The notes under the pieces are model-generated. The model saw only the letters and a list, made by a program, of their open reading frames with translations. It was not told where the DNA came from and did not search any database. Shown here piece by piece: positions 1 through 18,091 of a stretch of 19,016 nt of DNA. The number at the start of each line of letters is the position of its first letter. Within the stretch, counting starts at the first letter, position 1. This stretch comes from a virus (lineage: Duplodnaviria; Heunggongvirae; Uroviricota; Caudoviricetes), in IMG/VR virus record IMGVR_UViG_2636416161_000001, positions 1 through 19,016 of that record. One strand, given 5' to 3'. The position numbers and the translations under genes were made by a program.

Positions 1-2382
1 ACCGCTGTCATACATGCCTGCAAACGGAACCGCAGCAGCCGCTGCTCCACCAACCACCTGCACCTGTGCTTTGCCTTGTGTTTTATTATTTCCGGTCATC
101 CAGTCAGGCAGATAATCGGTGACTGAGGAAAGCTTGCTTTTTAGTGTCTCCCATTTGGCATTAATTCCATTAAGAATACTGTCAATAATGGCGCTGCCCA
201 TGTCCTGAAACTTCGCAGGAAGCGCGGCAACATCAGCCAAGATCGAATTCCATTTATCACTAATAGATTGCCTGATATTAGCCCACGCCTCAGAAACGCC
301 AGATTTTATTGCATCCCAATTTTTAGCTATTAATCCCGGCAAGGTATAATTAAAGAACAGTGATTTAATCCCCTCCCATGCGGCGCTGGCCTTTTCTTTA
401 ATCCAATCCCATGCCGTACCTGTGGCATTACATACGGCATCCCACATGGCCTTGAACTTTGGCCCAAGCGTGTCCCAATTGTGCCAGATATAAATAGCAC
501 CAGCGGCGATCAGCCCAATGACAGCCAGTATAGGATTTGCAAACATCAATCGGCCCAGCCATATAACTGACTTGCCAACAGAACTGATTGCTTTCCCAAT
601 AAGACCAAATGCAGATGAAAATTTTAGCCCCATCACCCCTGCGCTCATTCGCACTACTGCCATCGGCCCTAACACGGACGCCAGCGCCAGTGAAACAACC
701 CCAGCGGCGGTGGCAACAATGGCAAAGCCAGCTGCCAGCTTAAACAGCGCAGAGGTCAATTGTGGGTGTCGTTTAACAAAACCATCCAGACGCGAAGCCA
801 GTTCACCCAACCAGTCAGCCAGCTTCTTTAATGCAGGGGCAACTGTTTCACCGATACTAGCCATAGCATTGGTAAAGGAACCTGTAGCGGCTTCCCATTT
901 ATTACCAAGAGTATTTAAGGAGGCATCAACACGCTCGCGCAGAGAAGCCTGATTTTGTAGCTTTGAAGCCGTTTCACGATACCCTGAGATGCCTTTGGTA
1001 ATCATAATATTTAGCACCTGCAGCGTTTCCGCATCATCCCCAAAAATACCTTTTAACGTAGCTAACCTTTTCTCAGTATTAAGCTTTTGGAGTTGAGCTA
1101 ATTGCGTGTACATTTTCTCCAGCCCGCCAAACTCCCCCTTTCCATCAGTAAAATCGAACCTAACGCCAGTGCCTTTTAGTTCATCATTAGCATCCTTCAC
1201 TTTTTCCGTATTCATGACGGACTGAAATACTTTTCGGTAGGCATTACCAGCTGACTCTCCAGCCATACCAGCCTGATCAGCCATAACTAATAGAGGAGCA
1301 AATGTCTTAGCCGCGTCCAATCCCTTTTTATGAATAATATCCATCGCGCTGCTGATTTTTGAGAACCCCTGCAGCATATTTCCTGAATCTACCCCCGCGT
1401 AGAATCCTTTCTGGATCACGTCCATCAGATTCATCATATCTTTTTCTGAGGTCTGAGTAGCATCTTGTAACTTAGCCGCAAACTCAGCTGCTGCAGTGGG
1501 AGCCATCTGTAACTGCACGCCAAGATAAGCTGCTGACTCTCCCAAGCCGCCCAGGATGACCTGCGCCGACATACCCTGACGGCGTAGCATAGTCATCATG
1601 TTCTGAAAGTCGGCTGTTGTTCCCGGTAGCTTATCGCCCAAAGCAACTGCAAGCCGGTTAATTTTTTCAAATTCAGGCGCTACCTTTCCGCCCGGTCCCA
1701 TCATTGAACCGGCGAGCTGATTCGCTGCATTTTCTGATTCTGAATAGGCTTTTACTGGAGCCAACAACGTCATGCCAGTAGTTACCCCAGCCGCCATCGC
1801 CCCTGCACCATTACCTGCCAGAGAGTTCCTTAACTCGCGGGTCTTTTCAGCCTTGGCTTTGATGGCGTTGAGCTTTCGCTGACGCTCGCCAACGTCACGC
1901 AGCCTGCGCTCCTGCTCAGCCAACTGTCGGTTATACCGCTCAGTTTCTCGTGCAATCCGTGCCGTCTCACGCGCTCCGCCCCCAGCAGATAACCCCAGCC
2001 GATAAAGCTCAGCCCTGGCTGCCGCCATCTGGCGAGTTTCCTGTTGCTGTTTTTGTTCAAGACGTGAAACAGCACGCCACTGAGCTTCAAGCGCCTGCGT
2101 TTGTTTTTTTGTCGGGGATTCCAAAGATGACATTTCGCGCGTCATCATTTGAGCACGTAGCCTCGCCTGATCCAGTTCGGCACCAGTACGGCTAACACTT
2201 TGAGTTAGCTGATCGAAAGATTTAAGCTGACCTCCAGCATCACTCAGCTTTTTAATCTGATCGCGGGTTTGTCGAATAGCTGATGCCAGCTCCTTAGAGC
2301 CAGCCTGTGCATTTTTAAATGGGCGGGTTAACTTATCCACCGCCCCCAGAACTACCTGCAGTCGCAGGTTATTATCACTCAT
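1..2382 (-). CDS. T: Tail tape measure protein (gpT-like), 3' end outside the window
   Basis: ATG at 2382..2380; my by-eye translation reads MSDNNLRLQVVLGAVDKL... with no stop down to position 1 (about 794 codons). Not in the ORF track because it runs off the window edge. Position directly after E/E' matches P2 gene order. Trp/Gly/Ala-rich low-complexity C-terminal part. Confidence 0.75.
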   Translation of the reverse strand, partial: MSDNNLRLQVVLGAVDKLTRPFKNAQAGSKELASAIRQTRDQIKKLSDAGGQLKSFDQLTQSVSRTGAELDQARLRAQMMTREMSSLESPTKKQTQALEAQWRAVSRLEQKQQQETRQMAAARAELYRLGLSAGGGARETARIARETERYNRQLAEQERRLRDVGERQRKLNAIKAKAEKTRELRNSLAGNGAGAMAAGVTTGMTLLAPVKAYSESENAANQLAGSMMGPGGKVAPEFEKINRLAVALGDKLPGTTADFQNMMTMLRRQGMSAQVILGGLGESAAYLGVQLQMAPTAAAEFAAKLQDATQTSEKDMMNLMDVIQKGFYAGVDSGNMLQGFSKISSAMDIIHKKGLDAAKTFAPLLVMADQAGMAGESAGNAYRKVFQSVMNTEKVKDANDELKGTGVRFDFTDGKGEFGGLEKMYTQLAQLQKLNTEKRLATLKGIFGDDAETLQVLNIMITKGISGYRETASKLQNQASLRERVDASLNTLGNKWEAATGSFTNAMASIGETVAPALKKLADWLGELASRLDGFVKRHPQLTSALFKLAAGFAIVATAAGVVSLALASVLGPMAVVRMSAGVMGLKFSSAFGLIGKAISSVGKSVIWLGRLMFANPILAVIGLIAAGAIYIWHNWDTLGPKFKAMWDAVCNATGTAWDWIKEKASAAWEGIKSLFFNYTLPGLIAKNWDAIKSGVSEAWANIRQSISDKWNSILADVAALPAKFQDMGSAIIDSILNGINAKWETLKSKLSSVTDYLPDWMTGNNKTQGKAQVQVVGGAAAAAVPFAGMYDSG

Positions 2383-2811
2383 CGCTGGCCCCGCTTCTCT
2401 GAATTGCCTTATGCCGCCACTCCAGCACATCAGTCAGCGGCATAACGTCAGTGATGGACGGCGACCAGTGAAAGATGGTGGCAATATCTGCCACCAGATC
2501 ATCAACCGTCAGGTTGTCGGCAAATCGGCAAGCACCGACTTCGGCAACAAAAAAGTCACCACCTCTACAGCCATTGCTGTCAGATCGGCGGGGTCCAGCT
2601 CTGCCATTTCCTGCGCGGTCAGCGTCGGAGTGGAGATTCGCGGGATCACAGTCATCATCGCGCCCACGTCCATATCCATAATGGCCTGCAGACGGGTGCC
2701 ACGCAGTGCGCCGGACTGCGGCTTGCGCAGCACAATTTCGGTAATTTCAGTTTTACCGCGCATGATGGGAGTATCCAGTTTTACGGTCTTTTCAGTCAGT
2801 TTGTCGCTCAT
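2375..2811 (-). CDS. E+E' tail assembly chaperone fusion made by programmed -1 frameshift (about 145 aa)
   Basis: Slippery heptamer T_TTT_TTG in the zero frame at 2554..2548 of the minus strand. The -1 frame, translated by hand, stays open for 57 codons (VAEVGACRFADNLTVDDLVADIATIFHWSPSITDVMPLTDVLEWRHKAIQRSGASDE) to TGA at 2377..2375, overlapping the T start. Analogous to P2 E/E' and lambda G/GT. Confidence 0.6.
2509..2811 (-). CDS. E: Tail assembly chaperone gpE (zero-frame product, 100 aa)
   Basis: ORF-track ORF MSDKLTEKTVKLDTPIMRGKTEITEIVLRKPQ...; ATG at 2811; lies between FII and T as in P2. Confidence 0.8.
   Translation of the reverse strand: MSDKLTEKTVKLDTPIMRGKTEITEIVLRKPQSGALRGTRLQAIMDMDVGAMMTVIPRISTPTLTAQEMAELDPADLTAMAVEVVTFLLPKSVLADLPTT
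2548..2554 (-). promoter_or_regulatory. -1 ribosomal frameshift slippery site TTTTTTG (X_XXY_YYZ phase)
   Basis: Plus strand shows c-aaaaaa-g at 2548..2555; the minus strand reads AC-T TTT TTG in the E frame (codons ACT 2556..2554, TTT 2553..2551, TTG 2550..2548). Confidence 0.6.
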
Positions 2812-2836
2812 GTTCGTTTCCTGTTAATAAACTACT

Positions 2837-2854
2837 GGCGCGGCTGCCCGCGCC
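2837..2854 (-). terminator. GC-rich hairpin between FII and E (possible attenuating terminator or mRNA stabiliser)
   Basis: ggcgcgg (2837..2843) pairs with ccgcgcc (2848..2854) around a 4-nt loop. On the minus-strand transcript it is followed by AGUAGUUUAUUAAC, an interrupted U tract. Confidence 0.35.
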
Positions 2855-2865
2855 GTTAAGGTTAA

Positions 2866-3381
2866 TCAGAGGCCGAGGGCGTTACGGTGTTCTTCCATCA
2901 GGTCCACGCCGTCAACGATTTCAACCATGTTGACCAGATCGACCTCATAGAGCACTTCGCCGTTAATGGTCAGCTTCGCGTAGCTGTTGGTGCTACTGAC
3001 CTTGGTGCTGCTGCTCTCGCCGGTTTTCCACTCGCCGGAATCCACTTCTTTATGACGCCCGCGCACAACCAGCTCAACAGCCTGCACTTCGCCGGTATCG
3101 TCGCGCTGAATGGAACCGGTGAAACGCAGCTGGATGCCGTCAACGGTGGCCTTGCCCATCTGCTTGAATAACAGCAGTTCGGTGCCGCCGATTGAAAATT
3201 CCGTGTCCAGTGCGCCGTCATCCAGCCCCATGTCCACGTCCACCGCGCCCGGCATACCGCCGCCGCGATACTTCTCAAACTTGCGGGTGAATTTCGGCAG
3301 GGTCAGAGACTCAACGATCCCCTGCCAGTTGTTCCCGTCGTTGAACAGGTTCAGATGTTTTAACTTGCGTGGTAAAGCCAT
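2866..3381 (-). CDS. FII: Tail tube protein FII
   Basis: 171 aa ORF MALPRKLKHLNLFNDGNNWQG... with a C-terminal ...MEEHRNALGL, recognised as P2 FII-like; starts 9 nt after the FI stop. Confidence 0.9.
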   Translation of the reverse strand: MALPRKLKHLNLFNDGNNWQGIVESLTLPKFTRKFEKYRGGGMPGAVDVDMGLDDGALDTEFSIGGTELLLFKQMGKATVDGIQLRFTGSIQRDDTGEVQAVELVVRGRHKEVDSGEWKTGESSSTKVSSTNSYAKLTINGEVLYEVDLVNMVEIVDGVDLMEEHRNALGL

Positions 3382-3390
3382 GGTGTCCCC

Positions 3391-4563
3391 TTACGCGCTG
3401 ACCTGGCTGGAGAAATCCAGCAGGTACTGATCGGTGATGCGCTGGCGCAGCATCAGGTTTTCAAGCGGCGGCACCGGCGTGTAGTCGTAGTCGATGGTGA
3501 GCTTCCCGGCTTTCAGGGAGTCTTTATCGTTCACCGACTCATCCAGCCAGCAGTCAGCGCCGATGATGTAGCCCTGCGTTTTCAGGCTGCGCAGCTTGGC
3601 GCGGATACCTTCGATAATGTCACGGGCCAGCGACGGGTTAAGCACGCCATCCACCGCCCACATGTGCGCTTCTGCGATGGTGTCAGCCAGCACCTGCGCC
3701 GTGCGGGTGTAGTTCTCAAAGGCAAACAGCGGATCGTCACTGAGGCAGCGGGAACCCCAGAAGCGGAAGCCATCTTTGCGGATAAGCGTGGTGACATCAT
3801 TCTGGTTCAGCAGCCCCGCATCGGTTGCCGGGTCCTGCAGGTCCCAGAACACATCTGCAGAAATGCCGGTGACGCCATTCACGCCCACGTTGGACAGGGT
3901 TTTGTGCCAGCCGGTCTGCTCGTCAATTTTGGCACGCAGGCCGAGCGCACGGGCGGAGGCGTAAGCCGTCGCGTCTGCATTCAGCACGGTGTCAAAGTTG
4001 ATGAAGTCAGGCCAGATCAGCATCCCCTCGCGCTGACTGAAATTGTCACGGTAGGCAATCGCTTCTTCTACCGTTTTGCAGCCATAAGCGGACAAGTAGG
4101 CAAACCCGCGCAGGCTCTGCGCCACGCTCAACAGCTCAGTAGCAACCGCCTGCGTGTCATGCCCCGGCACGCCGAGAATGCGCGGCTTGACGCCCAGCTG
4201 CGACTGCGCCGAAAGCAGCGCTTTCATACCCGTTTTTTTACCGTCAGCGGTCACGCCGCCGATAATGTTGGAGGTTGTTTCCGCTTCGGTTTCGCCCTGT
4301 GCCACGCGCACAACGACGGTCACGGGTTTAGCCTGGTCGGCAATGGCATCCAGCGAGCGGGCCAGCGTGCCGGACTCACCCGCTTTGCCGCTGGCGGTCA
4401 GCACATCGGTCAGCAGGACCGGCTTATTGAGGGGAAACATGGACGCATCAGCATCATCGCCGGTGCAGACCATGCCCACGATGGCGGTGCTCACCGTGGT
4501 AATGGATCGGGTGCCCTCGTTGACTTCAACAACGCGCACCCCGTGGTGGTAATCCTGAGCCAT
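3391..4563 (-). CDS. FI: Contractile tail sheath protein FI
   Basis: ORF-track ORF 3391..4665; the likely real start is the internal ATG at 4563 ([19 protein letters not shown]...), preceded by GGAGAG. Recognised as P2 FI-like along its length (...[25 protein letters not shown]...). Confidence 0.9.
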
Positions 4564-4636
4564 AAGGCAGTCTCTCCGGTTACAGGGGGTCTGCTTATGT
4601 TCTGAATGATGAGCACATAACGCACGCATCCTGCTA

Positions 4637-4654
4637 TGTGTCAGGCATGGCACA
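4637..4654 (-). promoter_or_regulatory. TGT-N12-ACA dyad, candidate Ogr/Delta-dependent late promoter element for the FI operon
   Basis: tgt gtcaggcatggc aca; centre lies 82.5 bp upstream of the FI ATG, in the 104-bp gap between the invertase stop and the FI start. Confidence 0.5.
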
Positions 4655-4667
4655 ACAAGCGGCAAAA

Positions 4668-5234
4668 CTATTGAGTGGAAGCTAACGGAGTGGCAGGGAA
4701 TTTTTTATAAAGCGTAGATACCCCCACATCAAAAATAAGGGCCACTCTTTGCCGGGTTTCGCCTGCAGCAATTAACCGCCCGGCTTGCTCCCACTGTTCC
4801 GGCGTTAACTTAGGCCGCCGTCCTCCTATTCTTCCTTGTACTCTTGCAGCAGCTAATCCCGCACGAGTTCTCTCAACGATTAACTCACGTTCCATTTCAG
4901 CCAGGGCGCCCATGATGTGAAAGAAAAAGCGCCCCATGGGTGTCGAGGTATCAATGCTGTCCGTCAGACTGCGGAAATTAACAGCCCGCTGCCGCAGTTC
5001 CTCCACGAGAACCACCAGATGCCGCATACTGCGCCCAAGTCGATCAAGCTTCCAGACAACCAACGTATCTCCCGGTGACAGGGTTTTAAGCAGCTTTTTT
5101 AATCCGGGGCGGTCCGATGTTTTACCGCTCATTTTGTCCTCAAAAATCAGCTCACATCCTGACCGCTCCAGCGCATCACGCTGCAGCGCCGTGTTTTGTT
5201 CATTTGTTGATACGCGCACATAGCCAACCTGCAT
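4668..5234 (-). CDS. Serine DNA invertase (Hin/Gin/Cin/Pin family)
   Basis: [38 protein letters not shown]...[15 protein letters not shown]...[35 protein letters not shown]...GVSTLYKKF: catalytic-serine N-terminal motif, resolvase core and C-terminal HTH. Start taken as ATG 5234 (the ORF-track start 5252 is TTG). AAGGGAA precedes the ATG. Confidence 0.9.
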
Positions 5235-5288
5235 CTGTTTTCCCTTATGCAAAAGCCCGAATGATGCCAGCCAGGCAGGAAAACTGCA

Positions 5289-5314
5289 TTTTCTTAAACG
5301 TTGGTTTAGGAGGA
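5289..5314. repeat. Invertase crossover site 1 (gix/hix-like)
   Basis: ttttcttaaacg TT ggtttaggagga; the right half resembles the gix half-site as I recall it (GGTTTACAGGAA). The core TT occupies codon positions 2-3 of the alternative fibre frame. Confidence 0.55.
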
Positions 5315-5644
5315 GCCGCTAAGTTAGATGCAGCAAGTGCATCATTTGGAGAAAATGGCTGGTTGAGATTACCTGTGCTACTTGGCACTGATAAAAAGAC
5401 GCTTATCATTCAATGGGCATACGGCACAGCTGGAGGATCAAATTCTACAGGGCTTGTTTGTAACTTCCCTTTCACCTTTCCAAATCAGGTATTTACAGTT
5501 ATGACTGGTAATGTCGATCAGACATATACGTCAACCTCTATTCCTGGAGCGATAGGGTTCTGCAATGTTACAAGGGCGTCAATTATTGCAAAAAGCACCT
5601 TGTCATCATCAGAACAATTCTATTATCTGGCTATAGGTTATTAA
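5300..5644 (+). CDS. Promoterless alternative tail-fibre C-terminal segment (Sv'-like), expressed only after inversion
   Basis: Open frame ...VGLGGAAKLDAASASFGENGWLRLPVLLGTDKKTLIIQWAYGTAGGSNSTGL...QFYYLAIGY, homologous to the present H C-terminus (...[18 protein letters not shown]...FNYLAIGY). No start codon of its own; in frame with H across the crossover core. Confidence 0.7.
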   Translation, partial: VGLGGAAKLDAASASFGENGWLRLPVLLGTDKKTLIIQWAYGTAGGSNSTGLVCNFPFTFPNQVFTVMTGNVDQTYTSTSIPGAIGFCNVTRASIIAKSTLSSSEQFYYLAIGY

Positions 5645-5645
5645 T

Positions 5646-6077
5646 ATGGATAAGTTTTTTTATAGTCCTTCCAAAAATGAGTTTTATCTTTCTGATTTAA
5701 GATCTGAATACCTTAAATCAGGGGCGTGGCCTGAGGATTCAGTGGAAGTTAGCGATGATATTGTATTTAACTTTATTCAGACGCCTGCTGAAAAAGGAAA
5801 GATGAGAATAGCAGGTGATGACGGCCTTCCGGCATGGACAGATATACCAGCACCAACTCAAGAAGACATAATTGCTGCAAATGAAGACAAAAAAGCAGCC
5901 CTGCGCGTTATTGCAGATTCAGAAATAGCATGGCGACAGGATGCCGTTGATGTAGGCATCGCGACGGAAGTTGAAACCGCCGCGCTTACTGAATGGAAAA
6001 AATACCGGGTGCTGCTGATGCGTGTTGAAACAGCAGACCCGGAATGGCCTACGCCTCCGGCGACTCAGGCCAGTTAA
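5646..6077 (+). CDS. Tail fibre assembly protein (alternative copy, lambda Tfa-like)
   Basis: MDKFFYSPSKNEFY... N-terminus and ...TEWKKYRVLLMRVETADPEWPTPP C-terminus; ATG lies 1 nt after the alternative fibre stop. Confidence 0.8.
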   Translation: MDKFFYSPSKNEFYLSDLRSEYLKSGAWPEDSVEVSDDIVFNFIQTPAEKGKMRIAGDDGLPAWTDIPAPTQEDIIAANEDKKAALRVIADSEIAWRQDAVDVGIATEVETAALTEWKKYRVLLMRVETADPEWPTPPATQAS

Positions 6078-6483
6078 TATCTGGTGCGCCGGAGGTGTCT
6101 ACGGCCTCCAGCGCATCGAGATAATCCAGCCACAGATTATATTGCCCTTTTTCCACGTCTTTCAGGCGACCTAAAGCGGCTTTGCCGGGCCACTGCTTAC
6201 TATTGATGTAATTGTTCGCTTGTTCAATAAGGTATTGTTTTTTTGCTTCAGCATTTGCAATTAACTCATCTTGTGTAGGTTCAGGGCGCAGAACCCAGAC
6301 TGGCATGTTTTTATCGCTAACCCCACGAATCATTCCCTCAGGTGGAATTCCTGTGAACTCTATAAAAATAGAATCTTCTACATCAACTCCATCCTCCGGC
6401 CATGAGTCTGTTGCTTCGTATGAAGTTTTTAGCTCAAACGGATAGAAAGCATTTTTTGATGGACTAAAAATATAATTTCCCAT
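6049..6483 (-). CDS. Tail fibre assembly protein (copy expressed in the current orientation)
   Basis: MGNYIFSPSKNAFYPFEL... (ATG 6483, 1 nt after the H stop; the ORF track extends to 6495). C-terminus ...DINWPESPEA. Its 3' end overlaps the convergent tfa' by 29 nt. Confidence 0.8.
   Translation of the reverse strand: MGNYIFSPSKNAFYPFELKTSYEATDSWPEDGVDVEDSIFIEFTGIPPEGMIRGVSDKNMPVWVLRPEPTQDELIANAEAKKQYLIEQANNYINSKQWPGKAALGRLKDVEKGQYNLWLDYLDALEAVDTSGAPDINWPESPEA
6052..6097. other. Dyad symmetry at the overlapping 3' ends of the two tfa genes, near the centre of the invertible segment
   Basis: cgcctccggcg (6052..6062) and cgccggaggtg (6087..6097) form an 11-bp inverted repeat with one mismatch, with inner ccag/ctgg pairing. 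Dyad centre 6074.5 versus segment centre 6067.5. Confidence 0.4.
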
Positions 6484-6484
6484 G

Positions 6485-7882
6485 TCAGTACCCAATCGCT
6501 AAATAGTTAAAGGCATCCGAGTTAGCTGCGGCTGACTTCGCAATAAACCCAGTGGTAGTGGGCGACGAAATACCGACTGCTGCTGGCTGTTGTTCTGAAG
6601 TATAAGAGGGGTCAATCTGCCCGGTCGTAATGATGATAATCCCTGACGGGAATGGAATTGGGAACGTATTAGATATTCCCGTTGATGCTGAGTTACCTGC
6701 ATTCGCAGATCCCCACTGCAAAATGTATCCTCCCGGTAGTTTTTGATACCCAGATCCTGACGCGAAGGCGGACATGTCCGGTATCTGATTTGCCCCCGTC
6801 CCGACATTCCTTTTCGATGCCGTTCCCAAACCAAGGTATGCGAGAAGACCAGCTACATCCTTTCCACTCAAATGAGTCAGCGTATTGTCCAGCGGTTGTT
6901 TACCTGCCAGTGCATTAAGCATTGTCGTGGCAAAGTTCGGGTCATTCCCCAGCGCCGCCGCCAGTTCGTTCAGTGTATCCAGTGCCGCAGGTGCAGAACC
7001 CACCATTGCCGCAATCGCCGATTTCACAAAAGCCGTAGTGGCAATCTGTGTATTGTTGACCGACTGTGCCGCCGTGGGGGCTGTTGGCGTTCCGGTGAGT
7101 GCCGGACTCGACAACGGTGCTTTTAGTGCCAGCACATTGTTAATGGTGGTACTGAAATTCGGATCATTGTTAATGGCTGCGGCTATTTCTTTCAGCGTGT
7201 CCAGCGTGGCTGGCGCACCATTAATAAGGGCCGTCAGTGCCGCCTGTACAAACGCGGTGGTCGCAAGCTGCGTGGTATTATTCCCCGCCGCTGGCGTTGG
7301 CGCTTTGGGGGTTCCGGTAAACGTTGGACTTTCTTTGGGTGCATACTGTGAATGCGGGTCCGGCGCGGCAAGATGTTTTGCCATCAGGTCATCCACGTAC
7401 ACCTTCAGCTCCAGTGCCTTGTCATCCACATACTTGCGGGTTGCCAGCACTACAGCAGGGTCGATTTTCAGGGTGATATTGTCCGTGCTGCTGGTAATCA
7501 GCACCATGCGCACGGTCTGGGTACGCCCGCTGCCTTCAGCCAGTTGCGGCTTATAGCTTTCCGGGCAGTTGCCCACGGCAATCAATGCCCCGGACTCATC
7601 AAACAGACCCACTTCACGTATCCACCAACCACCCTCATTTTCAGGGATCACCTGTTCAGCAATAATCTGGCTGCTGTTCTGCGGGTCGATATAGAGCATA
7701 TTCAGCGCAGCCCGGCGTTTCTCATTTACCAGTGCCGTCTGCTTTGCGTCCGGCGTCGGCAATGCTCCGCCGCCATCGCCCACCGCCATATGGGTAATTT
7801 TTAGCGGCACACCGAGCGCGGCGGCGCTGGCAAGTTTCGCCGCGCCAATATCCGTCAGCAGGGTATAAAATTTTGTGCTCAT
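6485..7882 (-). CDS. H: Tail fibre protein gpH (constant N-terminal part plus currently fused variable C-terminus)
   Basis: 465 aa [42 protein letters not shown]..., recognised as P2 gpH-like at the N-terminus. Start overlaps the I stop (ATGA). C-terminus ends ...NYLAIGY. Confidence 0.9.
6821..6846. repeat. Invertase crossover site 2 (gix/hix-like), inside H
   Basis: cgttcccaaacc AA ggtatgcgagaa; left half close to the gix-type half-site TTCC..AAACC. Core is inverted relative to site 1 and in the same codon phase (H codons TAC CTT GGT TTG GGA = YLGLG). Confidence 0.55.
6887..7327 (-). repeat. Tandem duplicated module of about 74 aa (about 222 bp) inside H
   Basis: [72 protein letters not shown] and [72 protein letters not shown], visible also as diverged nucleotide repeats. 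Confidence 0.5.
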
Positions 7883-12144: not shown

Positions 12145-12657
12145 TCAGTTTGCTCCCTGTAAACACCAGGCCATCTCCCGCGCACGGCGGTTATCCAGCC
12201 CCTGATTAAACACACCTTTTACATAAACCCAGCGCGGCAACTGTCGGCACGCATCCGCCCAGCGCCGCTGATTGAGCAATTTCACCAGCGTGGAGCTGCA
12301 GGCATTGCCTGTCCCCACGTTGAAGGCAAACGACACCACCGAGTCATACACCTTTTGTGGCGGCTGTTGCTTCACACATCTTTCCAGCGCCCGCTCCACA
12401 CGCAGCACGTTGGAGATAAGCCCTTCTGCTGCCTGTCGTTCCGTAATGGTTTTGCCGGGAATGACGCCCGACGTATTACCAATGCCGTCAGTCCATACAC
12501 CCGCGCTGCACTGATACGGCTGCAGACGACAGCCTTCGTAATCGGCAATCAGTTTCAGTCCTTCCACGGAGGTGTGAAGCTGCTGAAAACCCGGCAGCGT
12601 GGCAGCAATAGCCAGCACGGTCCCGACAAGGCAGCGTTTAACGATTGATGGATTCAT
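12145..12657 (-). CDS. SAR (signal-anchor-release) endolysin, T4-lysozyme-like
   Basis: N-terminal weakly hydrophobic Gly/Ala-rich segment KRCLVGTVLAIAATLPG, then a lysozyme catalytic region (VEGLKLIADYEGCRLQPYQ...GVWTDGIGNT) resembling the phage 21 R / P1 Lyz type. Confidence 0.8.
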   Translation of the reverse strand: MNPSIVKRCLVGTVLAIAATLPGFQQLHTSVEGLKLIADYEGCRLQPYQCSAGVWTDGIGNTSGVIPGKTITERQAAEGLISNVLRVERALERCVKQQPPQKVYDSVVSFAFNVGTGNACSSTLVKLLNQRRWADACRQLPRWVYVKGVFNQGLDNRRAREMAWCLQGAN

Positions 12658-12853
12658 AGTCCTCCCGCGTGATCTGCCCGTCGCGCAGAAGCTGGTAGGC
12701 TTTGTGTTTGTAGTACCAGTTGATAGCCAGCATCAGCACACCGATCATCAGGCCGCCCAGCGTTGAGGCATCCTTGATGGACAAATCGCCCAGCCAGGCC
12801 AGCACGACGGCGATGCAATACGTGATAAAGGCGCTGATTCGCTCAAGCGTCAT
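12638..12853 (-). CDS. Small two-TMD holin (pinholin-like)
   Basis: 71 aa with two hydrophobic segments (ISAFITYCIAVVLAWLG; LGGLMIGVLMLAINWYY) and a charged C-terminus. Overlaps the endolysin start by 20 nt and sits directly upstream of a SAR endolysin. Confidence 0.7.
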   Translation of the reverse strand: MTLERISAFITYCIAVVLAWLGDLSIKDASTLGGLMIGVLMLAINWYYKHKAYQLLRDGQITREDYESINR

Positions 12854-12856
12854 AAT

Positions 12857-13060
12857 TCAGTCCCATAGCTGGACGGTCTGCACGGTGGTGGTTGTCGGAA
12901 TGTCCGGCAGCTCCACCTGCAGCCCGTGAGGTAAAAAGGGGCCATATTCGGCAAGCCCCGGATTTGCCTTCAGTACCTGCTCCGTGACACCCTGCGTGCG
13001 CCCGTAATGACGCCAGCAAAGCGCGTCCACCGTGTCATACTGATGCGCACGCACTTTCAT
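12857..13060 (-). CDS. X: Tail protein gpX
   Basis: 67 aa ORF MKVRAHQYDTVDALCWRHYGRTQGVTEQVLKANPGLAEYGPFLPHGLQVELPDI... recognised as P2 gpX-like; ATGA overlap with L. Confidence 0.8.
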   Translation of the reverse strand: MKVRAHQYDTVDALCWRHYGRTQGVTEQVLKANPGLAEYGPFLPHGLQVELPDIPTTTTVQTVQLWD

Positions 13061-13524
13061 CAGATAAGCTCCACTGTGCAGTGCGGCGCGTCCTGTACCC
13101 GGCTGATGGCCCAGCGGGCGTCACGCCATAAATCACCGCTGGCTTCCGCCAGTTCCTCGCCCCGCTTCACACCGGATGCCGTGGCGTCATAGTCCTGGTA
13201 ACGTTCGTTGAGCATGGCGCGTGCCCAGCAGTAAACCGCGTTGAAATAGTGCTGAATGCGCTCACTTTTGCCGTCCAGCTGTTCCGCCGGAACCTCTGCC
13301 AGCGAGGCATACCCCAGCATCTGCTGGCGTCTGCGAAACTCATACAGCTCTGCGTTGACCTCCGAAATTGCCGACAGCGCAACCTGCTTTAAACGCGGCT
13401 GCGTCACCGTGCCGTCAGTGCGCATGACACTGCGAAACTCCGACAGGTCCACATCAGGCCAGAACGGCGTATTTCTGATGATTTCCGCCTGTTCCGGTGC
13501 CTGTTCTGGCGCAACAAACTTCAT
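13060..13524 (-). CDS. L: Head completion / stabilisation protein gpL
   Basis: ...FWPDVDLSEFRSVMRTDGTVTQPRLKQVALSAISEVNAELYEFRRRQ...; preferred start ATG 13524 (MKFVAPEQ...) with AGGAGA at -8. The ORF-track start at 13587 is GTG, giving 175 aa. Confidence 0.8.
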   Translation of the reverse strand: MKFVAPEQAPEQAEIIRNTPFWPDVDLSEFRSVMRTDGTVTQPRLKQVALSAISEVNAELYEFRRRQQMLGYASLAEVPAEQLDGKSERIQHYFNAVYCWARAMLNERYQDYDATASGVKRGEELAEASGDLWRDARWAISRVQDAPHCTVELI

Positions 13525-13619
13525 GCTGCTTTCTCCTGAAATAGAGGGCGGTGGACGGGGTTTTGATGTGGCAGTGCCTTTCGCCACCCCGTGCCGCCCG
13601 TGCGCGGGGGCACGTTCTG

Positions 13620-14270
13620 TCAGCGGCTGTCATTGCGCAGTCTGCGCTCCAGCTGCTGTTTGTCTTTTTTCACGCCACAGCGGGGATCGAGCTGTAACGC
13701 ATGGTTGAGATGATTAAGGGCAGACGCCGGATTGCTTTCACTCAGGACCGCGCCAATCGCTTTATGCAGACGCGCCCGTGACTGGTCCGGCATATCCAGA
13801 CCGTCTGTCAGCTCCAGCGTCTGCAGCAACAGATCGGCATCAAAGCCGGTGGTGGCAAGCATTGCGCTCTGCGCGGCGTCTGCCATTTCCTCTGCCAGCA
13901 CGGTCTGCACGTTGCGGTTACCCAGCGGCATCACCCAGCCATGACGCAGGGCATGACGCCCGATCTCCAGCGCTCCGGCATAATCTCCGGCATCAATGCG
14001 CCACAGCATCACGTACATCAGCACGTCATCCTGTTGAGCGCCTCCGGCAGCCAGGACACCCTCTGCCCAGGCGGCGTACTTCGGCAGCAGCTCCACCTTG
14101 ATTTCCGCTTTTTTGACCGTGGACTGAACGCCCTTGAGACGGCGGCGGTCTTCCGCCAGTTGCAGCAGCATCAGGTCATAGCCCGATGCGTGGCGAACAC
14201 TGCCGCCCTCGCGGGCGGCCTGTTCAGCCTGAACGCGCAGGCGATGCTGCCGTGCGGGACTCAGGCTCAT
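13620..14270 (-). CDS. M: Terminase small (endonuclease) subunit gpM
   Basis: 216 aa ORF MSLSPARQHRLRVQAEQAAREGGSVRHASGYDLMLLQLAEDRRRLK...GAQQDDVLMYVMLWRIDAGDYAGALEIGRHAL... recognised as P2 gpM-like. Confidence 0.85.
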   Translation of the reverse strand: MSLSPARQHRLRVQAEQAAREGGSVRHASGYDLMLLQLAEDRRRLKGVQSTVKKAEIKVELLPKYAAWAEGVLAAGGAQQDDVLMYVMLWRIDAGDYAGALEIGRHALRHGWVMPLGNRNVQTVLAEEMADAAQSAMLATTGFDADLLLQTLELTDGLDMPDQSRARLHKAIGAVLSESNPASALNHLNHALQLDPRCGVKKDKQQLERRLRNDSR

Positions 14271-14273
14271 GGA

Positions 14274-15332
14274 TTACGCTCCGGTTTCGGCTGCGGCGGC
14301 GCTGAAATCACCAATCTGGATGTTTTCCACCAGTGCGGCGCAGCGGTAGTCCTCAACCACATAGGCTTCGTTAACGGATTCAAAGTTTTCAATCCGGTCA
14401 CGTTTCGGGTTGTCGATAACTGAACGGCGGCGGGTGTCTTCCTGCCAGTAGATGGACAGGTTATCCAGACGGGTGATCAGCAGCGCATTCGGCGGGAAGA
14501 ACGGCGCACGCACGGCCTGCAGACCGCCCATGCGTTTCTGACTGATAATCATATCGGCAGCCAGTTTTTCACTGTTTTCCTGCTCTTTGTTGACCAGCGG
14601 GAAATACTTGTCAGACAGCAGTTCACGCCCGCAAATCACCACCAGATCGTCATCGTCCTGGTAGACCACGTCGATAAGCTCATTAACGGCATCCATCACC
14701 ACGGCGTCCAGGTTGGCATATTCGCCACCTTTACCGACTTTCACCGCGCCCGGTGTGGTTTCACCGCCCGTGGTGGTGCTGCCCATGACGTGATCCGGTG
14801 CATCCTCACGGATTTTCTGTAACCAGCCTTTGTTCACATCCTGCAGCAGCGGGTTTTCGCTACGGTTGGAGGTTTTCGCACGCTTCACGCCGTTAAAGCC
14901 GATCATGATGCGGTCCAGTGCCTGACGTTTCACGATGGCGTCACGGATACGCACCTGGAAATCCTGAAACTTCGCCCACAGGTCCAGCTTCGCGTAGGTC
15001 AGCACCGTGTCAAAGTTAGTCTGCTCGCATTTATATTCCACATCGACCATCAGCGTCGGATCGACAGGCTCACGCTCTTTAGCTGTGGTATCAGTGGTTC
15101 CGGCAATGGTGCTGCCAACACCCAACCCCAGCAGCTGACCGGACTGCTCAGTCACTGGCGTGACGTTAATCAGCGTCAGGAATGCGGCGGACTGCTGGAT
15201 CTGATCTTCCAGCGTCTGCTGCACAGACGGCTCTACAGTGAACTTGCTGGACAGTTCTTCAACGGCCACACCGTTCAGACGCGCCAGCTGCTGCAGGTAA
15301 GCGTTAAAAGCAAAGCGGGTATTCTTCTTCAT
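14274..15332 (-). CDS. N: Major capsid protein gpN
   Basis: 352 aa ORF MKKNTRFAFNAYLQQLARLNGVAVEELSSKFTVEPSVQQTLEDQIQQSAAFLTLINV... recognised as P2 gpN-like. Confidence 0.9.
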   Translation of the reverse strand: MKKNTRFAFNAYLQQLARLNGVAVEELSSKFTVEPSVQQTLEDQIQQSAAFLTLINVTPVTEQSGQLLGLGVGSTIAGTTDTTAKEREPVDPTLMVDVEYKCEQTNFDTVLTYAKLDLWAKFQDFQVRIRDAIVKRQALDRIMIGFNGVKRAKTSNRSENPLLQDVNKGWLQKIREDAPDHVMGSTTTGGETTPGAVKVGKGGEYANLDAVVMDAVNELIDVVYQDDDDLVVICGRELLSDKYFPLVNKEQENSEKLAADMIISQKRMGGLQAVRAPFFPPNALLITRLDNLSIYWQEDTRRRSVIDNPKRDRIENFESVNEAYVVEDYRCAALVENIQIGDFSAAAAETGA

Positions 15333-15348
15333 CGGGTTTTGTGCTCCA

Positions 15349-16182
15349 TCAGCAATTGGTCAGAGTGTCAGCGGGGGCGTTACCGCCTGTTGCACGCTGG
15401 CGGTAGTCCTGGCGGCTGTCTTCATGACTCAGCTTATTCACCAGTTCGTTAAAGGCGGTCTGCTGTGCCTGCAGGGCAGTCTCCAGCTCAGACAGACGTT
15501 CTTCCTGCTCAGACAGGGATTTTTCGGTGCGTACGCTCAGGTTTTGCTGCTCAGTGGCGACCAACTCCACGGCCTTATGCACATCAGAGAACCGGGCATC
15601 GTCGGACTGCTCTTTTTTGGTGAACAGTGCCGTGACGCGGGCAAACAGGGACGGCTTGTCCTCCTGGATTTCTTCCAGTTCGATCACCGTTTCCTCTGCG
15701 GCGGTAAAGAGATTGGCGGGATTCTGCTTGCGGTTTGCCAGCGGGTTATGGGCTGCACTGGCGCTGAATGTCAGCATTTCAGTGCCCAGACTGGCAGGAT
15801 CATCAGTGGCAGCCAGGCCGACCAGGTAGGCTTTGCCCGTATCAGCAAACTTCGGGCTGACTTCCATAGAGGTGAATAATTTCTGGCCTTTTTTCACCAG
15901 TTCCACCAGGGATTCCGTTGGCTCAACGTCGGCATACAGCGCCATCTTGCCTGCCAACGGACCTTCTGTGATTTCTTCAGCAAACAGCGCCGTCACCTTG
16001 CCGTAGCGGTTAAAGGTGCTGTCCGGCAGATAAGACTTGATGTGCTCAAGGTTAATCAGCGCGGTATACACCGCCGGGTTGTAGCTGGCTGCCATCTGTT
16101 CCAGCCATTCACGCTGGATTTCGCGTCCGTCGGTGGTGGCACCTTCCACCCCGATGCGAAAACGCTTTGCTTTCACTGTCAT
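15349..16182 (-). CDS. O: Capsid scaffolding protein gpO
   Basis: 277 aa ORF MTVKAKRFRIGVEGATTDGREIQREWLEQMAASYNPAVYTALINLEHIK... recognised as P2 gpO-like; GGAG precedes the ATG. Confidence 0.9.
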   Translation of the reverse strand: MTVKAKRFRIGVEGATTDGREIQREWLEQMAASYNPAVYTALINLEHIKSYLPDSTFNRYGKVTALFAEEITEGPLAGKMALYADVEPTESLVELVKKGQKLFTSMEVSPKFADTGKAYLVGLAATDDPASLGTEMLTFSASAAHNPLANRKQNPANLFTAAEETVIELEEIQEDKPSLFARVTALFTKKEQSDDARFSDVHKAVELVATEQQNLSVRTEKSLSEQEERLSELETALQAQQTAFNELVNKLSHEDSRQDYRQRATGGNAPADTLTNC

Positions 16183-16260
16183 GAGCCGTGCTCCGTTAGA
16201 AAAAACTTACTGGAGCCTTATGGTTGCGGTGATGGGGGCAGTGAAACAATGCGCGGTATT

Positions 16261-16278
16261 TGTACCGACAACCACACA
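16261..16278. promoter_or_regulatory. TGT-N12-ACA dyad in the divergent O/P intergenic region (candidate late promoter element for O, P or both)
   Basis: tgt accgacaaccac aca; centre is 87.5 bp from the O ATG and 55.5 bp from the P ATG. It is the only perfect dyad in the 142-bp gap. Confidence 0.5.
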
Positions 16279-16324
16279 AACCGCAGGCGGGGAAAGCCTT
16301 CATTCAAGGCTGTAGGTTTGTGCC

Positions 16325-18091
16325 ATGAACACCACACTGACACCCGCAGATCTCGATCCCCGTCGGCAGGCCATGCTGCTGTACTTTCAGGGATACCGCG
16401 TAGCCCGCATTGCTGAAATGCTGGGCGAGAAAGTTGCAACCGTTCACAGCTGGAAAAAACGCGACAAGTGGGGTGACTATGGGCCGCTGGATCAGATGCA
16501 GCTCACCACCGCCGCACGCTACTGCCAGCTCATTATGAAGGAGCACAAAGAAGGGAAAGATTTCAAAGAGATTGACCTGCTGGCGCGCCAGTCGGAGCGC
16601 CACGCGCGGATCGGCAAGTTTAACAATGGCGGCAACGAAGCCGACTTAAACCCTAACGTCGCCAACCGCAACAAAGGCCCGCGCCGTCAGCCGGAAAAGA
16701 ATGTTTTCACCGATGAGCAGATTGAGAAGCTGGAAGAAATCTTCCATTCCTCCATGTTCAACTACCAGCGCCACTGGTGGGAAGCCGGAAAAGCCAACCG
16801 CATCCGCAACCTGCTGAAGTCACGCCAGATCGGCGCGACCTTTTACTTTGCCCGTGAAGCCCTGATTGACGCCCTGCTTACCGGACGTAACCAGATTTTC
16901 CTTTCCGCCAGCAAGGCACAGGCCCACGTCTTTAAGCAGTACATCATCGACTTCGCCAAAGAAGTGGAGGTGGAGTTGAAAGGCGATCCGATGGTGCTTC
17001 CTAACGGGGCCACGCTTTACTTCCTCGGCACCAATGCCCGCACTGCCCAGAGTTATCACGGCAACCTGTATCTGGATGAATATTTCTGGATACCGAAATT
17101 CCAGGAGCTGCGCAAAGTGGCTTCCGGTATGGCTATTCACAAAAAATGGCGACAAACCTATTTTTCCACGCCATCCAGCCTGACTCACAGTGCTTATCCG
17201 TTCTGGTCCGGTGCGCTGTTCAATCGTGGGCGCAACAAAGCCGATAAGGTGGACATCGACCTGTCCCACAGCAATCTGGCCCCCGGCCTGCTGTGCGCAG
17301 ACGGGCAGTACCGCCAGATAGTCACTGTGGAAGATGCGGTGCGCGGCGGCTGTAACCTGTTCGACCTCGACCAGTTGCGCATGGAGTACAGCCCGGACGA
17401 ATACCAGAACCTACTGATGTGCGAGTTTGTGGACGATCTCGCGTCCGTGTTTCCGCTCAGCGAGCTGCAGGCGTGCATGGTGGACAGTTGGGAAGTCTGG
17501 ACCGACTTTCATGCTCTGGCCCTGCGCCCGTTTGGCTGGCGCGAAGTGTGGATCGGTTATGACCCGGCAAAAGGTACGCAGAACGGCGACAGCGCCGGAT
17601 GCGTGGTGGTGGCACCGCCAGCCGTGCCGGGCGGTAAGTTTCGCATTCTTGAGCGTCACCAGTGGCGCGGGATGGACTTCCGCGCCCAGGCTGACGCAAT
17701 CAAAAAACTGACCGAGCAGTACAACGTGACCTACATCGGCATCGACTCAACCGGCGTTGGTCACGGGGTTTACGAGAACGTGAAAGCGTTCTTTCCTGCC
17801 GTCCGGGAGTTTGTCTACAACCCCAACGTTAAAAACGCCCTGGTACTCAAGGCCTACGACATTATCAGCCACCGCCGTCTGGAGTTTGACGCCGGACATA
17901 CCGACATTGCGCAGTCATTTATGGCAATCCGTCGCGCCACCACCGCCAGTGGCAACCGCCCGACCTATGAAGCCAGCCGCAGCGAAGAAGCCAGCCACGC
18001 CGATCTGGCATGGGCAACGATGCACGCACTGTTTAACGAACCGCTGCAGGGCGAATCCGCCAATACCAGCAATATTGTGGAGATTTTTTGA
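16325..18091 (+). CDS. P: Terminase large (ATPase) subunit gpP
   Basis: 588 aa ORF MNTTLTPADLDPRRQAMLLYFQGYRVARIAEMLGEKVATVHSWKKRDKW... recognised as P2 gpP-like; stop overlaps the Q start (ATGA). Confidence 0.9.
   Translation: MNTTLTPADLDPRRQAMLLYFQGYRVARIAEMLGEKVATVHSWKKRDKWGDYGPLDQMQLTTAARYCQLIMKEHKEGKDFKEIDLLARQSERHARIGKFNNGGNEADLNPNVANRNKGPRRQPEKNVFTDEQIEKLEEIFHSSMFNYQRHWWEAGKANRIRNLLKSRQIGATFYFAREALIDALLTGRNQIFLSASKAQAHVFKQYIIDFAKEVEVELKGDPMVLPNGATLYFLGTNARTAQSYHGNLYLDEYFWIPKFQELRKVASGMAIHKKWRQTYFSTPSSLTHSAYPFWSGALFNRGRNKADKVDIDLSHSNLAPGLLCADGQYRQIVTVEDAVRGGCNLFDLDQLRMEYSPDEYQNLLMCEFVDDLASVFPLSELQACMVDSWEVWTDFHALALRPFGWREVWIGYDPAKGTQNGDSAGCVVVAPPAVPGGKFRILERHQWRGMDFRAQADAIKKLTEQYNVTYIGIDSTGVGHGVYENVKAFFPAVREFVYNPNVKNALVLKAYDIISHRRLEFDAGHTDIAQSFMAIRRATTASGNRPTYEASRSEEASHADLAWATMHALFNEPLQGESANTSNIVEIF

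Follow-up and report, generated by a model that had tools for sequence, protein, structure and literature searches.

Organization of the tail chaperone locus

The DNA analysed here is a 19,016-nucleotide stretch of a tailed-phage genome (the window), and all of the features described below lie on its minus strand. Gene FII (2866..3381) encodes the tail tube protein (Pfam PF04985 Phage_tube, E = 8e-61). It is followed by gene E (2811..2509, with its ATG at 2811 and a TGA at 2511..2509), whose zero-frame product, a tail assembly chaperone of 100 aa, matches Pfam PF10109 Phage_TAC_7 (E = 6e-18) and PHROG 103 (tail protein) and whose Fels-2 counterpart is labelled 'P2 gpE-like tail protein'. The tail tape measure gene T (1..2382) is represented by 793 codons, its 3' end lying beyond the window; it matches Pfam PF10145 PhageMin_Tail (E = 2e-26) and is labelled as tape measure in the records of relatives as well. 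Between E and T lies an extension in the -1 frame, E' (2375..2548). The resulting order of FII (PF04985), E (PF10109), E' (PF06528) and T (PF10145) is the P2 gene order, and it is common to Fels-2, RE-2010 and P2, all of which have an E homologue between the tube and tape-measure genes.

A slippery heptamer, T_TTT_TTG, is found near the end of gene E at 2554..2548, where the codons ACT TTT TTG specify T86, F87 and L88. The heptamer starts on the third base of codon 86, which gives the X_XXY_YYZ register, and it is placed inside the two-frame overlap of E and E', as in P2-type pairs. From G2548 the -1 frame translates as VAEVGACRF...SGASDE, and joining E residues 1-88 to E' yields a 145-aa product, E+E'. 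The initial annotation had placed an in-frame T_TTT_TTG 12 codons upstream of the E stop and described a -1 frame open for exactly 57 codons and ending 5 nt into gene T. Both the register and the coordinates hold: 12 sense codons separate the heptamer from the E stop, and the 57 codons of the -1 frame are closed by TGA at 2377..2375.

The E' stop overlaps the tape-measure ATG (2382..2380) and ends 5 nt past it, so that the two genes share the 8-nt sequence ATGAGTGA (2375..2382). This octamer is identical in 80/80 and 79/80 related loci from two IMG/VR sets, and the same overlap with T is seen in 159 of these 160 loci. Translation of T via termination-reinitiation by frameshifted ribosomes was considered and set aside, since T has its own SD-like pairing (anti-SD-like duplex of -7.0 kcal/mol, comparable with that of other genes).

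Conservation and coding potential of the -1 frame

The E' extension matches Pfam PF06528 Phage_P2_GpE (E = 2e-17), a match that is obtained only with the fusion and reached through the -1 frame, and it also corresponds to PHROGs 1756 and 6416. A scan of NCBIfam with the E+E' fusion returned no match, and a sequence search of the PDB turned up no solved structure for any relative. In a comparison of 58 distinct close DNAs, variable sites upstream of the heptamer number 57/85 at frame-0 third positions. After the E stop, they number 22/42 at third positions of the -1 frame, as compared with 5/42 at its second positions. Codon-position variability follows frame 0 before the heptamer and the -1 frame past it. 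Purifying selection acts on the -1 frame, and with the Pfam match and the conservation described below this marks the extension as real coding sequence.

The heptamer itself is strongly conserved. It is unchanged in all 80 loci of the close set (58 distinct DNAs), including at four synonymous positions, and its flanks are also invariant; a further 80 loci comprise 75 with TTTTTTG and 5 with TTTTTTA. Across the 160 close IMG/VR loci the arrangement is retained and the heptamer kept in every case, and the extension is 57 codons long in 158 and 58 codons long in the other two. A locus search seeded with the E' alignment returned mostly close relatives. A tblastn search with the fusion matched 405 phage records, 348 of which cover at least 80% of the query; among the matches listed, every full-length one is split into two pieces, as a change of frame predicts.

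More distant relatives were also compared. T_TTT_TTG is present at the homologous Phe-Leu position in P2, phiCTX, Milagro, RS-AB1, Alfacinha1, phiT5282H, SI22 and SEN4, and the distant relatives that carry it include phages of Burkholderia, Ralstonia and Acidovorax. In these relatives the codon preceding the two slippery codons always ends in T, whichever of G, T, S, P, D and L it specifies. Across distant relatives frame-0 conservation collapses after F87, which is where -1-frame conservation starts. Other heptamers occur at the homologous junction in a Mannheimia phage (G_GGA_AAG) and in P88_4B11 (A_AAT_TTT). Throughout the family, a slippery heptamer of some kind is retained where the frames join. 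The initial annotation had held that an extension absent from, or not conserved in, relatives would refute a frameshift; all of the relatives that were compared retain it.

Comparison with known frameshift systems

Among the closest known counterparts is Fels-2 (STM2699 / STM2697.1, NC_010463.1), with 92.8% nucleotide identity over the locus. Lengths, heptamer position and T overlap are identical in Fels-2 and other Felsduovirus prophages, and Fels-2 differs by point substitutions only (for example, E' reads VAEVG...ADNLTV here and VEEVG...TDSLTI in Fels-2). Both CDSs in the Fels-2 record carry the remark 'forms functional gpE+E' if translational slippage occurs'.

The E/E+E' frameshift of P2 was described by Christie et al. 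(2002, J Bacteriol 184:6522), as relayed in PMC3091744 and PMC3931495. According to these later accounts, the products made with TTTTTTG in P2 are a 91-aa E and a 142-aa E+E' (PMC3091744, with reference to Christie 2002 and Xu 2004; PMC3931495), and E+E' is described as being made at several percent of E and as essential for tail assembly (PMC3091744, PMC5009743). The locus analysed here resembles that of P2 in its FII-E-E'-T order, in having TTTTTTG at the aligned Phe-Leu, in its 57-codon extension, in its Pfam families, and in the overlap of the E' stop with the T start (ATGAGTAA in P2). However, amino-acid identity is only ~48%, E is 100 aa rather than 91 aa, the heptamer is separated from the E stop by 12 codons rather than 6, the fusion is 145 aa rather than 142 aa, and P2 is without the small downstream hairpin of the Fels-2 clade. 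The proposal of a P2 E/E' (lambda G/GT-like) arrangement is therefore supported by gene order, Pfam families, the Fels-2 record and the P2 heptamer. The feature is a programmed -1 frameshift of a P2-type tail chaperone, which is ordinary and already documented, and this locus adds no new biology.

The lambda G/GT tail chaperone frameshift is reportedly the work of Levin (1993) and of Xu, Hendrix and Duda (2004, 2013 and 2014). Like the present locus, lambda places a pair of overlapping ORFs between its major tail gene and its tape-measure gene, with a frameshift site close to where the first ORF ends. Tail assembly in lambda is sensitive to how much fusion is made relative to the short product, as would be the case for E and E+E'. 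In lambda, G outnumbers GT by 30:1; the tape measure is bound by G and the tube protein by T (PMC5009743). In contrast to the present locus, lambda uses G_GGA_AAG and has a non-contractile tail, and there is no amino-acid sequence similarity between the lambda and P2 systems (PMC3931495). HIV-1 gag-pol has a near-identical heptamer, U_UUU_UUA, that likewise spans Phe and Leu codons, but it is read by a eukaryotic ribosome, has a defined downstream stem-loop stimulator, and stands in an unrelated protein context.

Proposed mechanism of E+E' synthesis

Based on sequence comparison, gene E of this Fels-2-like (P2-family) prophage very probably directs the synthesis of both E and a -1-frameshifted 145-aa E+E'. 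Most ribosomes would read gene E through to the stop at 2509, producing the 100-aa chaperone, while a minority would shift back one nucleotide at U_UUU_UUG and translate the 57 codons of the -1 frame. That slippage occurs in this element, and at what frequency, we infer from sequence and homology. In a tandem route, tRNA-Phe would re-pair perfectly (UUU to UUU) and tRNA-Leu (UUG) would re-pair with UUU at 2/3 positions; alternatively, tRNA-Phe may slip alone with the A site empty. Both routes, tandem slippage and P-site slippage under limiting Leu-tRNA, are documented at the HIV-1 U_UUU_UUA (PMC6547452). Since there are two such routes, the junction residue (L or F) is unreadable from the DNA, and slippage of the P-site tRNA alone could make the junction peptide ...VTFF-VAEVG instead of ...VTFL-VAEVG.

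Following the lambda G/GT precedent, the portion common to both products may bind the tape-measure protein T, the presumed client of both E and E+E', and the E' domain may recruit the tail tube protein, FII being its presumed partner after the example of lambda gpV. The frequency of frameshifting would then fix the chaperone-to-fusion ratio needed for tail assembly.

Candidate stimulators of frameshifting

Frameshifting efficiency is ~3% in lambda and 2-3-fold higher in the P2 family (PMC5009743). In E. coli reporters, U_UUU_UUG is a weak heptamer: frameshifting reaches 0.118% without a stimulator and 0.765% when the strong IS3 pseudoknot is supplied (Sharma 2014, Table S3). The initial annotation had suggested RNA folding downstream of 2548 as a check for a stimulatory structure. 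In the Fels-2 clade, a candidate 8-bp hairpin, AAGUCGGU-GCUU-GCCGAUUU (2522..2541), begins 6 nt past the heptamer and appears in both MFE and centroid folds, with a z of about -2. Pairing is kept in 95% of cells across 32 distinct sequences of the clade, but a test for covariation was negative, with neither compensatory changes nor an excess over shuffles. The hairpin is not conserved beyond the clade, and RNAalifold on 14 diverse lineages gave 0 pairs and no consensus downstream structure. An Rfam scan of 2200..3000 produced sub-threshold noise only.

Upstream of the heptamer, an SD-like GAGGUG was considered as a stimulator and rejected: it ends 5 nt before the heptamer, too close in view of the spacing of about 6-17 nt for upstream SD-like stimulators (Sharma 2014), and it is absent in phiCTX, Milagro and others. 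E. coli dnaX offers a useful contrast. There too, bacterial ribosomes undergo programmed -1 frameshifting at a homopolymeric heptamer (A_AAA_AAG), but the upstream SD and downstream hairpin of dnaX are well defined, whereas the GAGGUG here is unconserved in the wider family and is joined by no conserved hairpin.

Because the heptamer is weak, no downstream structure is conserved and the hairpin is without covariation, the efficiency is not explicable from the sequence. An unrecognised stimulator that sets the E : E+E' ratio is one tentative, rather doubtful explanation, given the weakness of U_UUU_UUG relative to a P2-family shift 2-3 times that of lambda. Within the Fels-2 clade the candidates are the 8-bp hairpin, an effect of the nascent chain, or P-site slippage under limiting Leu-tRNA, which would leave F-F at the junction.

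Alternative explanations for E+E' and E'

E+E' could also arise if RNA polymerase lengthened the U6 run by one U and the edited mRNA were translated normally, giving the junction ...VTFF-VAEVG. Consistent with this, the T6 homopolymer is strictly retained, including the third base of the preceding codon, T7 is found at the homologous junction of a Zymomonas phage and in Smp131 and xanthomonad prophages (PMC3931495), and avoidance of U7 and A7 has been ascribed partly to transcriptional slippage (Sharma 2014). At 6 nt, however, the run here is short, since E. coli RNA polymerase needs about 8-9 or more identical bases to slip appreciably. A long homopolymeric A/T run, the mark of programmed transcriptional slippage, is not shared by all members: the homopolymers at the Mannheimia (G_GGA_AAG) and P88_4B11 (A_AAT_TTT) junctions are too short, and only tRNA re-pairing fits them. 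These non-homopolymeric heptamers at the same junction favour tRNA slippage over polymerase slippage, and the literature treats the P2 event as translational (PMC3091744, PMC3931495, PMC5009743). Polymerase slippage is therefore improbable, and translational frameshifting is the preferred reading.

Less probable still is that E' is an independent 39-aa protein initiated at the GTG at 2494..2492. This start is the one used by annotation pipelines, which call the product a 'GpE family phage tail protein'; RefSeq PGAP and GenBank annotate separate CDSs in RE-2010, MLG42 and an E. coli chromosome, and many relatives have ATG or GTG at the homologous codon. However, that codon is GCC in RS-AB1, GTC in phiT5282H, ATC in Alfacinha1 and ATT in Mannheimia. 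The anti-SD duplex at the GTG is only -3.0 kcal/mol, with no SD-like 4-mer in the 20 nt upstream, an absence seen in 14 of 15 lineages, and P2 E' is without a ribosome binding site (PMC3931495). Furthermore, the stretch from the E stop to the GTG already shows -1-frame residue conservation ((V/I)(D/E)(D/N) and residues upstream of it) together with third-position variability. We judge the GTG start not to be real. RefSeq PGAP and many GenBank records divide the locus between a 'tail assembly protein' of 100 aa and a free-standing 39-aa 'GpE family' ORF that is spurious, and they omit the 145-aa product of frameshifting. Accurate E+E' models are of practical value for annotating prophages and for engineering P2-type tails and tailocins.

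Finally, the heptamer and open -1 frame might be a coincidence, or a relic in a defective prophage from which nothing is made, as in-register X_XXY_YYZ heptamers number 18 in the 5,741 codons of the window's genes, but this is extremely unlikely and effectively refuted by the conservation data, the arrangement being conserved across hundreds of phages; the Pfam match of the extension and the purifying selection on its frame also stand against it. Even with homology and conservation left out, the joint chance expectation is about 0.014 per 100-codon gene: the -1 frame is open for at least 57 codons at only 4.6% of in-frame positions, and the longest -1 extension among the 18 heptamers is the one at the E site.

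The E/E' locus and its products

The tail assembly chaperone gene E lies on the minus strand, from an ATG at 2811 to a TGA at 2511..2509, and encodes 100 aa. Near its 3' end is the slippery heptamer TTTTTTG (2554..2548, minus strand), read T_TTT_TTG across T86, F87 and L88; codon 86 (ACT) supplies the first T as its third base, and 12 sense codons separate the heptamer from the E stop. From G2548 the -1 frame stays open for 57 codons (E', VAEVGACRFADNLTVDDLVADIATIFHWSPSITDVMPLTDVLEWRHKAIQRSGASDE), ending at a TGA (2377..2375, minus strand) past the start of the following tape-measure gene T (ATG 2382..2380, minus strand); that start and the E' stop are both contained in the octamer ATGAGTGA. 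The initial annotation had proposed a programmed -1 frameshift of the P2 E/E' type here, and its heptamer position and register, 12-codon spacing, 57-codon extension past the T start and all other figures were correct on recheck.

E matches Pfam Phage_TAC_7 (PF10109, 6e-18); joining E 1-88 conceptually to the 57 residues of the -1 frame gives 145 aa and adds a match to Phage_P2_GpE (PF06528, 2e-17) over residues 107-142. Upstream lies the tail tube gene (PF04985) and downstream the tape-measure gene (PF10145), with PHROGs assignments consistent with the Pfam ones. On every defining feature open to testing, the locus belongs to the P2 E/E+E' system. Its DNA is 92.8% identical to that of Salmonella phage Fels-2, and identity to E. 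coli chromosomal prophages reaches 98.5%. The Fels-2 record notes a functional gpE+E' from these two CDSs upon translational slippage, and the frameshift is therefore already known, even in this clade of Fels-2-like relatives.

Conservation and chance expectation

Heptamers of the form X_XXY_YYZ are no rarity in register (18 in 5,741 codons of window genes), and at none of the others does the -1 frame extend as far as at the E site. A -1 frame that stays open for at least 57 codons follows just 4.6% of in-frame positions in window genes; for a gene of 100 codons, the two together are expected ~0.014 times, homology left aside.

The initial annotation had staked its reading on conservation of the -1 extension in close relatives, and this was found. 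All 80 IMG/VR loci of a first set have a 100-aa E, a 12-codon interval between heptamer and stop, the 57-codon extension and ATGAGTGA. A second set of 80 loci, retrieved via an E' motif, carries TTTTTTG in 75 and TTTTTTA in 5, with extensions of 57 (78 loci) or 58 codons (2 loci) and ATGAGTGA kept in 79. Variability was compared across the 58 distinct DNA versions in the first set, without indels. Before the heptamer, 57/85 third positions and 2/86 second positions vary in frame 0; past the E stop, 22/42 third and 5/42 second positions vary in frame -1. The heptamer and its immediate flanks are invariant, including four synonymous positions. When the fusion was searched by tblastn against 50,697 phage records, 405 matched, 348 of them with at least 80% query coverage, and each full-length match listed falls in two pieces, as a frame change would give.

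At the aligned Phe-Leu of E, T_TTT_TTG is in register in P2, phiCTX, Burkholderia Milagro, Ralstonia RS-AB1, Acidovorax Alfacinha1, Enterobacter phiT5282H, and Salmonella SI22 and SEN4. The corresponding heptamer is T_TTT_TTT in a Zymomonas element and T_TTT_TTC in Yersinia phage 42.18. The third base of the codon preceding the T run is always T, though the residue is G, T, S, P, D or L. Across the E alignment, conservation collapses directly after F87, and the -1 frame is conserved from F87 onward. At the homologous E/E' junction, Mannheimia phage 2256AP1 has G_GGA_AAG (1094-1100), the lambda G/GT heptamer, and P88_4B11 has A_AAT_TTT (1055-1061). Thus, the heptamer has been replaced in evolution while the frameshift arrangement was retained.

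Mechanism and alternative origins of E'

RNA-polymerase slippage at the T run could also give E+E'. However, the non-homopolymeric heptamers of two lineages favor tRNA re-pairing, and a six-nucleotide homopolymer is short for transcriptional slippage. It is unlikely that E' is instead an independent protein initiated at GTG 2494 (2492-2494, minus strand), as PGAP and several GenBank records annotate it, since this codon has no SD-like sequence upstream (anti-SD duplex only -3.0 kcal/mol), its homolog is GCC, GTC, ATC or ATT in four lineages, and -1-frame constraint is visible already upstream of it. PGAP labels the stand-alone 39-aa ORF 'GpE family phage tail protein', the Fels-2 record gives E' a CTG start, and RefSeq/GenBank relatives with the split model leave the 145-aa product unannotated; the Milagro record has a joined frameshift CDS. 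What matters most in practice is that automated pipelines continue to model this locus wrongly, as two genes.

Ribosomal -1 slippage on U_UUU_UUG is the best-supported reading, as described for P2, where TTTTTTG yields E (91 aa) and E+E' (142 aa) (PMC3091744; PMC3931495). Tandem slippage would give the junction ...VTFL-VAEVG and P-site-only slippage ...VTFF-VAEVG, the two regimes reported for HIV-1 U_UUU_UUA (PMC6547452); the junction residue (L or F) is not readable from DNA. By analogy with lambda G/GT (PMC5009743), which works similarly without sequence relatedness, E would bind the tape measure, E' would recruit the tube protein, and shift frequency would set the E : E+E' ratio.

Stimulators and shift efficiency

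The initial annotation had suggested folding the RNA downstream of 2548 in search of a stimulatory structure. A candidate 8-bp hairpin (2541..2522, minus strand; z ~ -2) begins 6 nt past the heptamer. Over 32 distinct clade sequences 95% of its cells are paired, which shuffles equal, with no compensatory changes (all are one-sided wobble). RNAalifold over 14 diverse lineages gave no consensus pair, in agreement with the reported absence of downstream structure at P2-type sites (PMC3091744); per-sequence z-scores ranged from -2.9 to +1.1 (P2, +1.05). An Rfam scan of the locus found nothing. An upstream GAGGUG, 5 nt from the heptamer, was considered as an SD-like stimulator and rejected, being too near the heptamer and not conserved in the wider family. 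Separately, a perfect 7-8-bp stem, GGUGGCA-GAUAU-UGCCACC (2476-2496, minus strand), overlies the most conserved E' codons (LVADIATI) and the annotated GTG; at ~45 nt downstream of the heptamer, it is too distant for direct stimulation.

U_UUU_UUG ranks among the weak heptamers in systematic E. coli reporters: it shifts at 0.118% on its own, at 0.247% when the IS911 stimulators are added and at 0.765% when the IS3 pseudoknot is (Sharma 2014, Table S3). Lambda's ratio is 1:30, and the shift in the P2 family is put at 2-3 times that (PMC5009743). The source of this raised efficiency is not evident from sequence, a family-wide question not special to the window.

Other features of the window

Judged by ORF layout and by eye, 12145-18091 appears to be an ordinary P2-type late region, with putative endolysin, holin, gpX-like, head completion, small terminase, capsid and scaffold genes and a putative large terminase on the opposite strand; nothing unusual was noticed across it.

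An invertible tail-fiber host-range switch is predicted at 4668-7882 (both strands). A serine DNA invertase (4668..5234/5252, minus; Resolvase + HTH_7) adjoins tail-fiber gene H (6485..7882, minus), with tail-fiber-assembly genes in opposite orientations (6049..6495, minus; 5646..6077, plus) and a promoterless alternative fiber C-terminal cassette (~5300..5644, plus; Gp53-like_C). Between the candidate crossover sites at 5291-5312 (TTCTTAAACGTTGGTTTAGGAG) and 6843-6822 (TCGCATACCTTGGTTTGGGAAC), 18/26 positions match at the optimal offset. In the Fels-2 record the layout is the same and the invertase is called Cin/Gin-like, and this switch is therefore also already known.

For sheath gene FI (3391-4665, minus), the mechanical ORF opens at TTG 4665 and would encode 424 aa. 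Translation almost certainly begins at ATG 4563 instead (MAQDYHHG..., 390 aa), which fits the 1173-nt FI of Fels-2.
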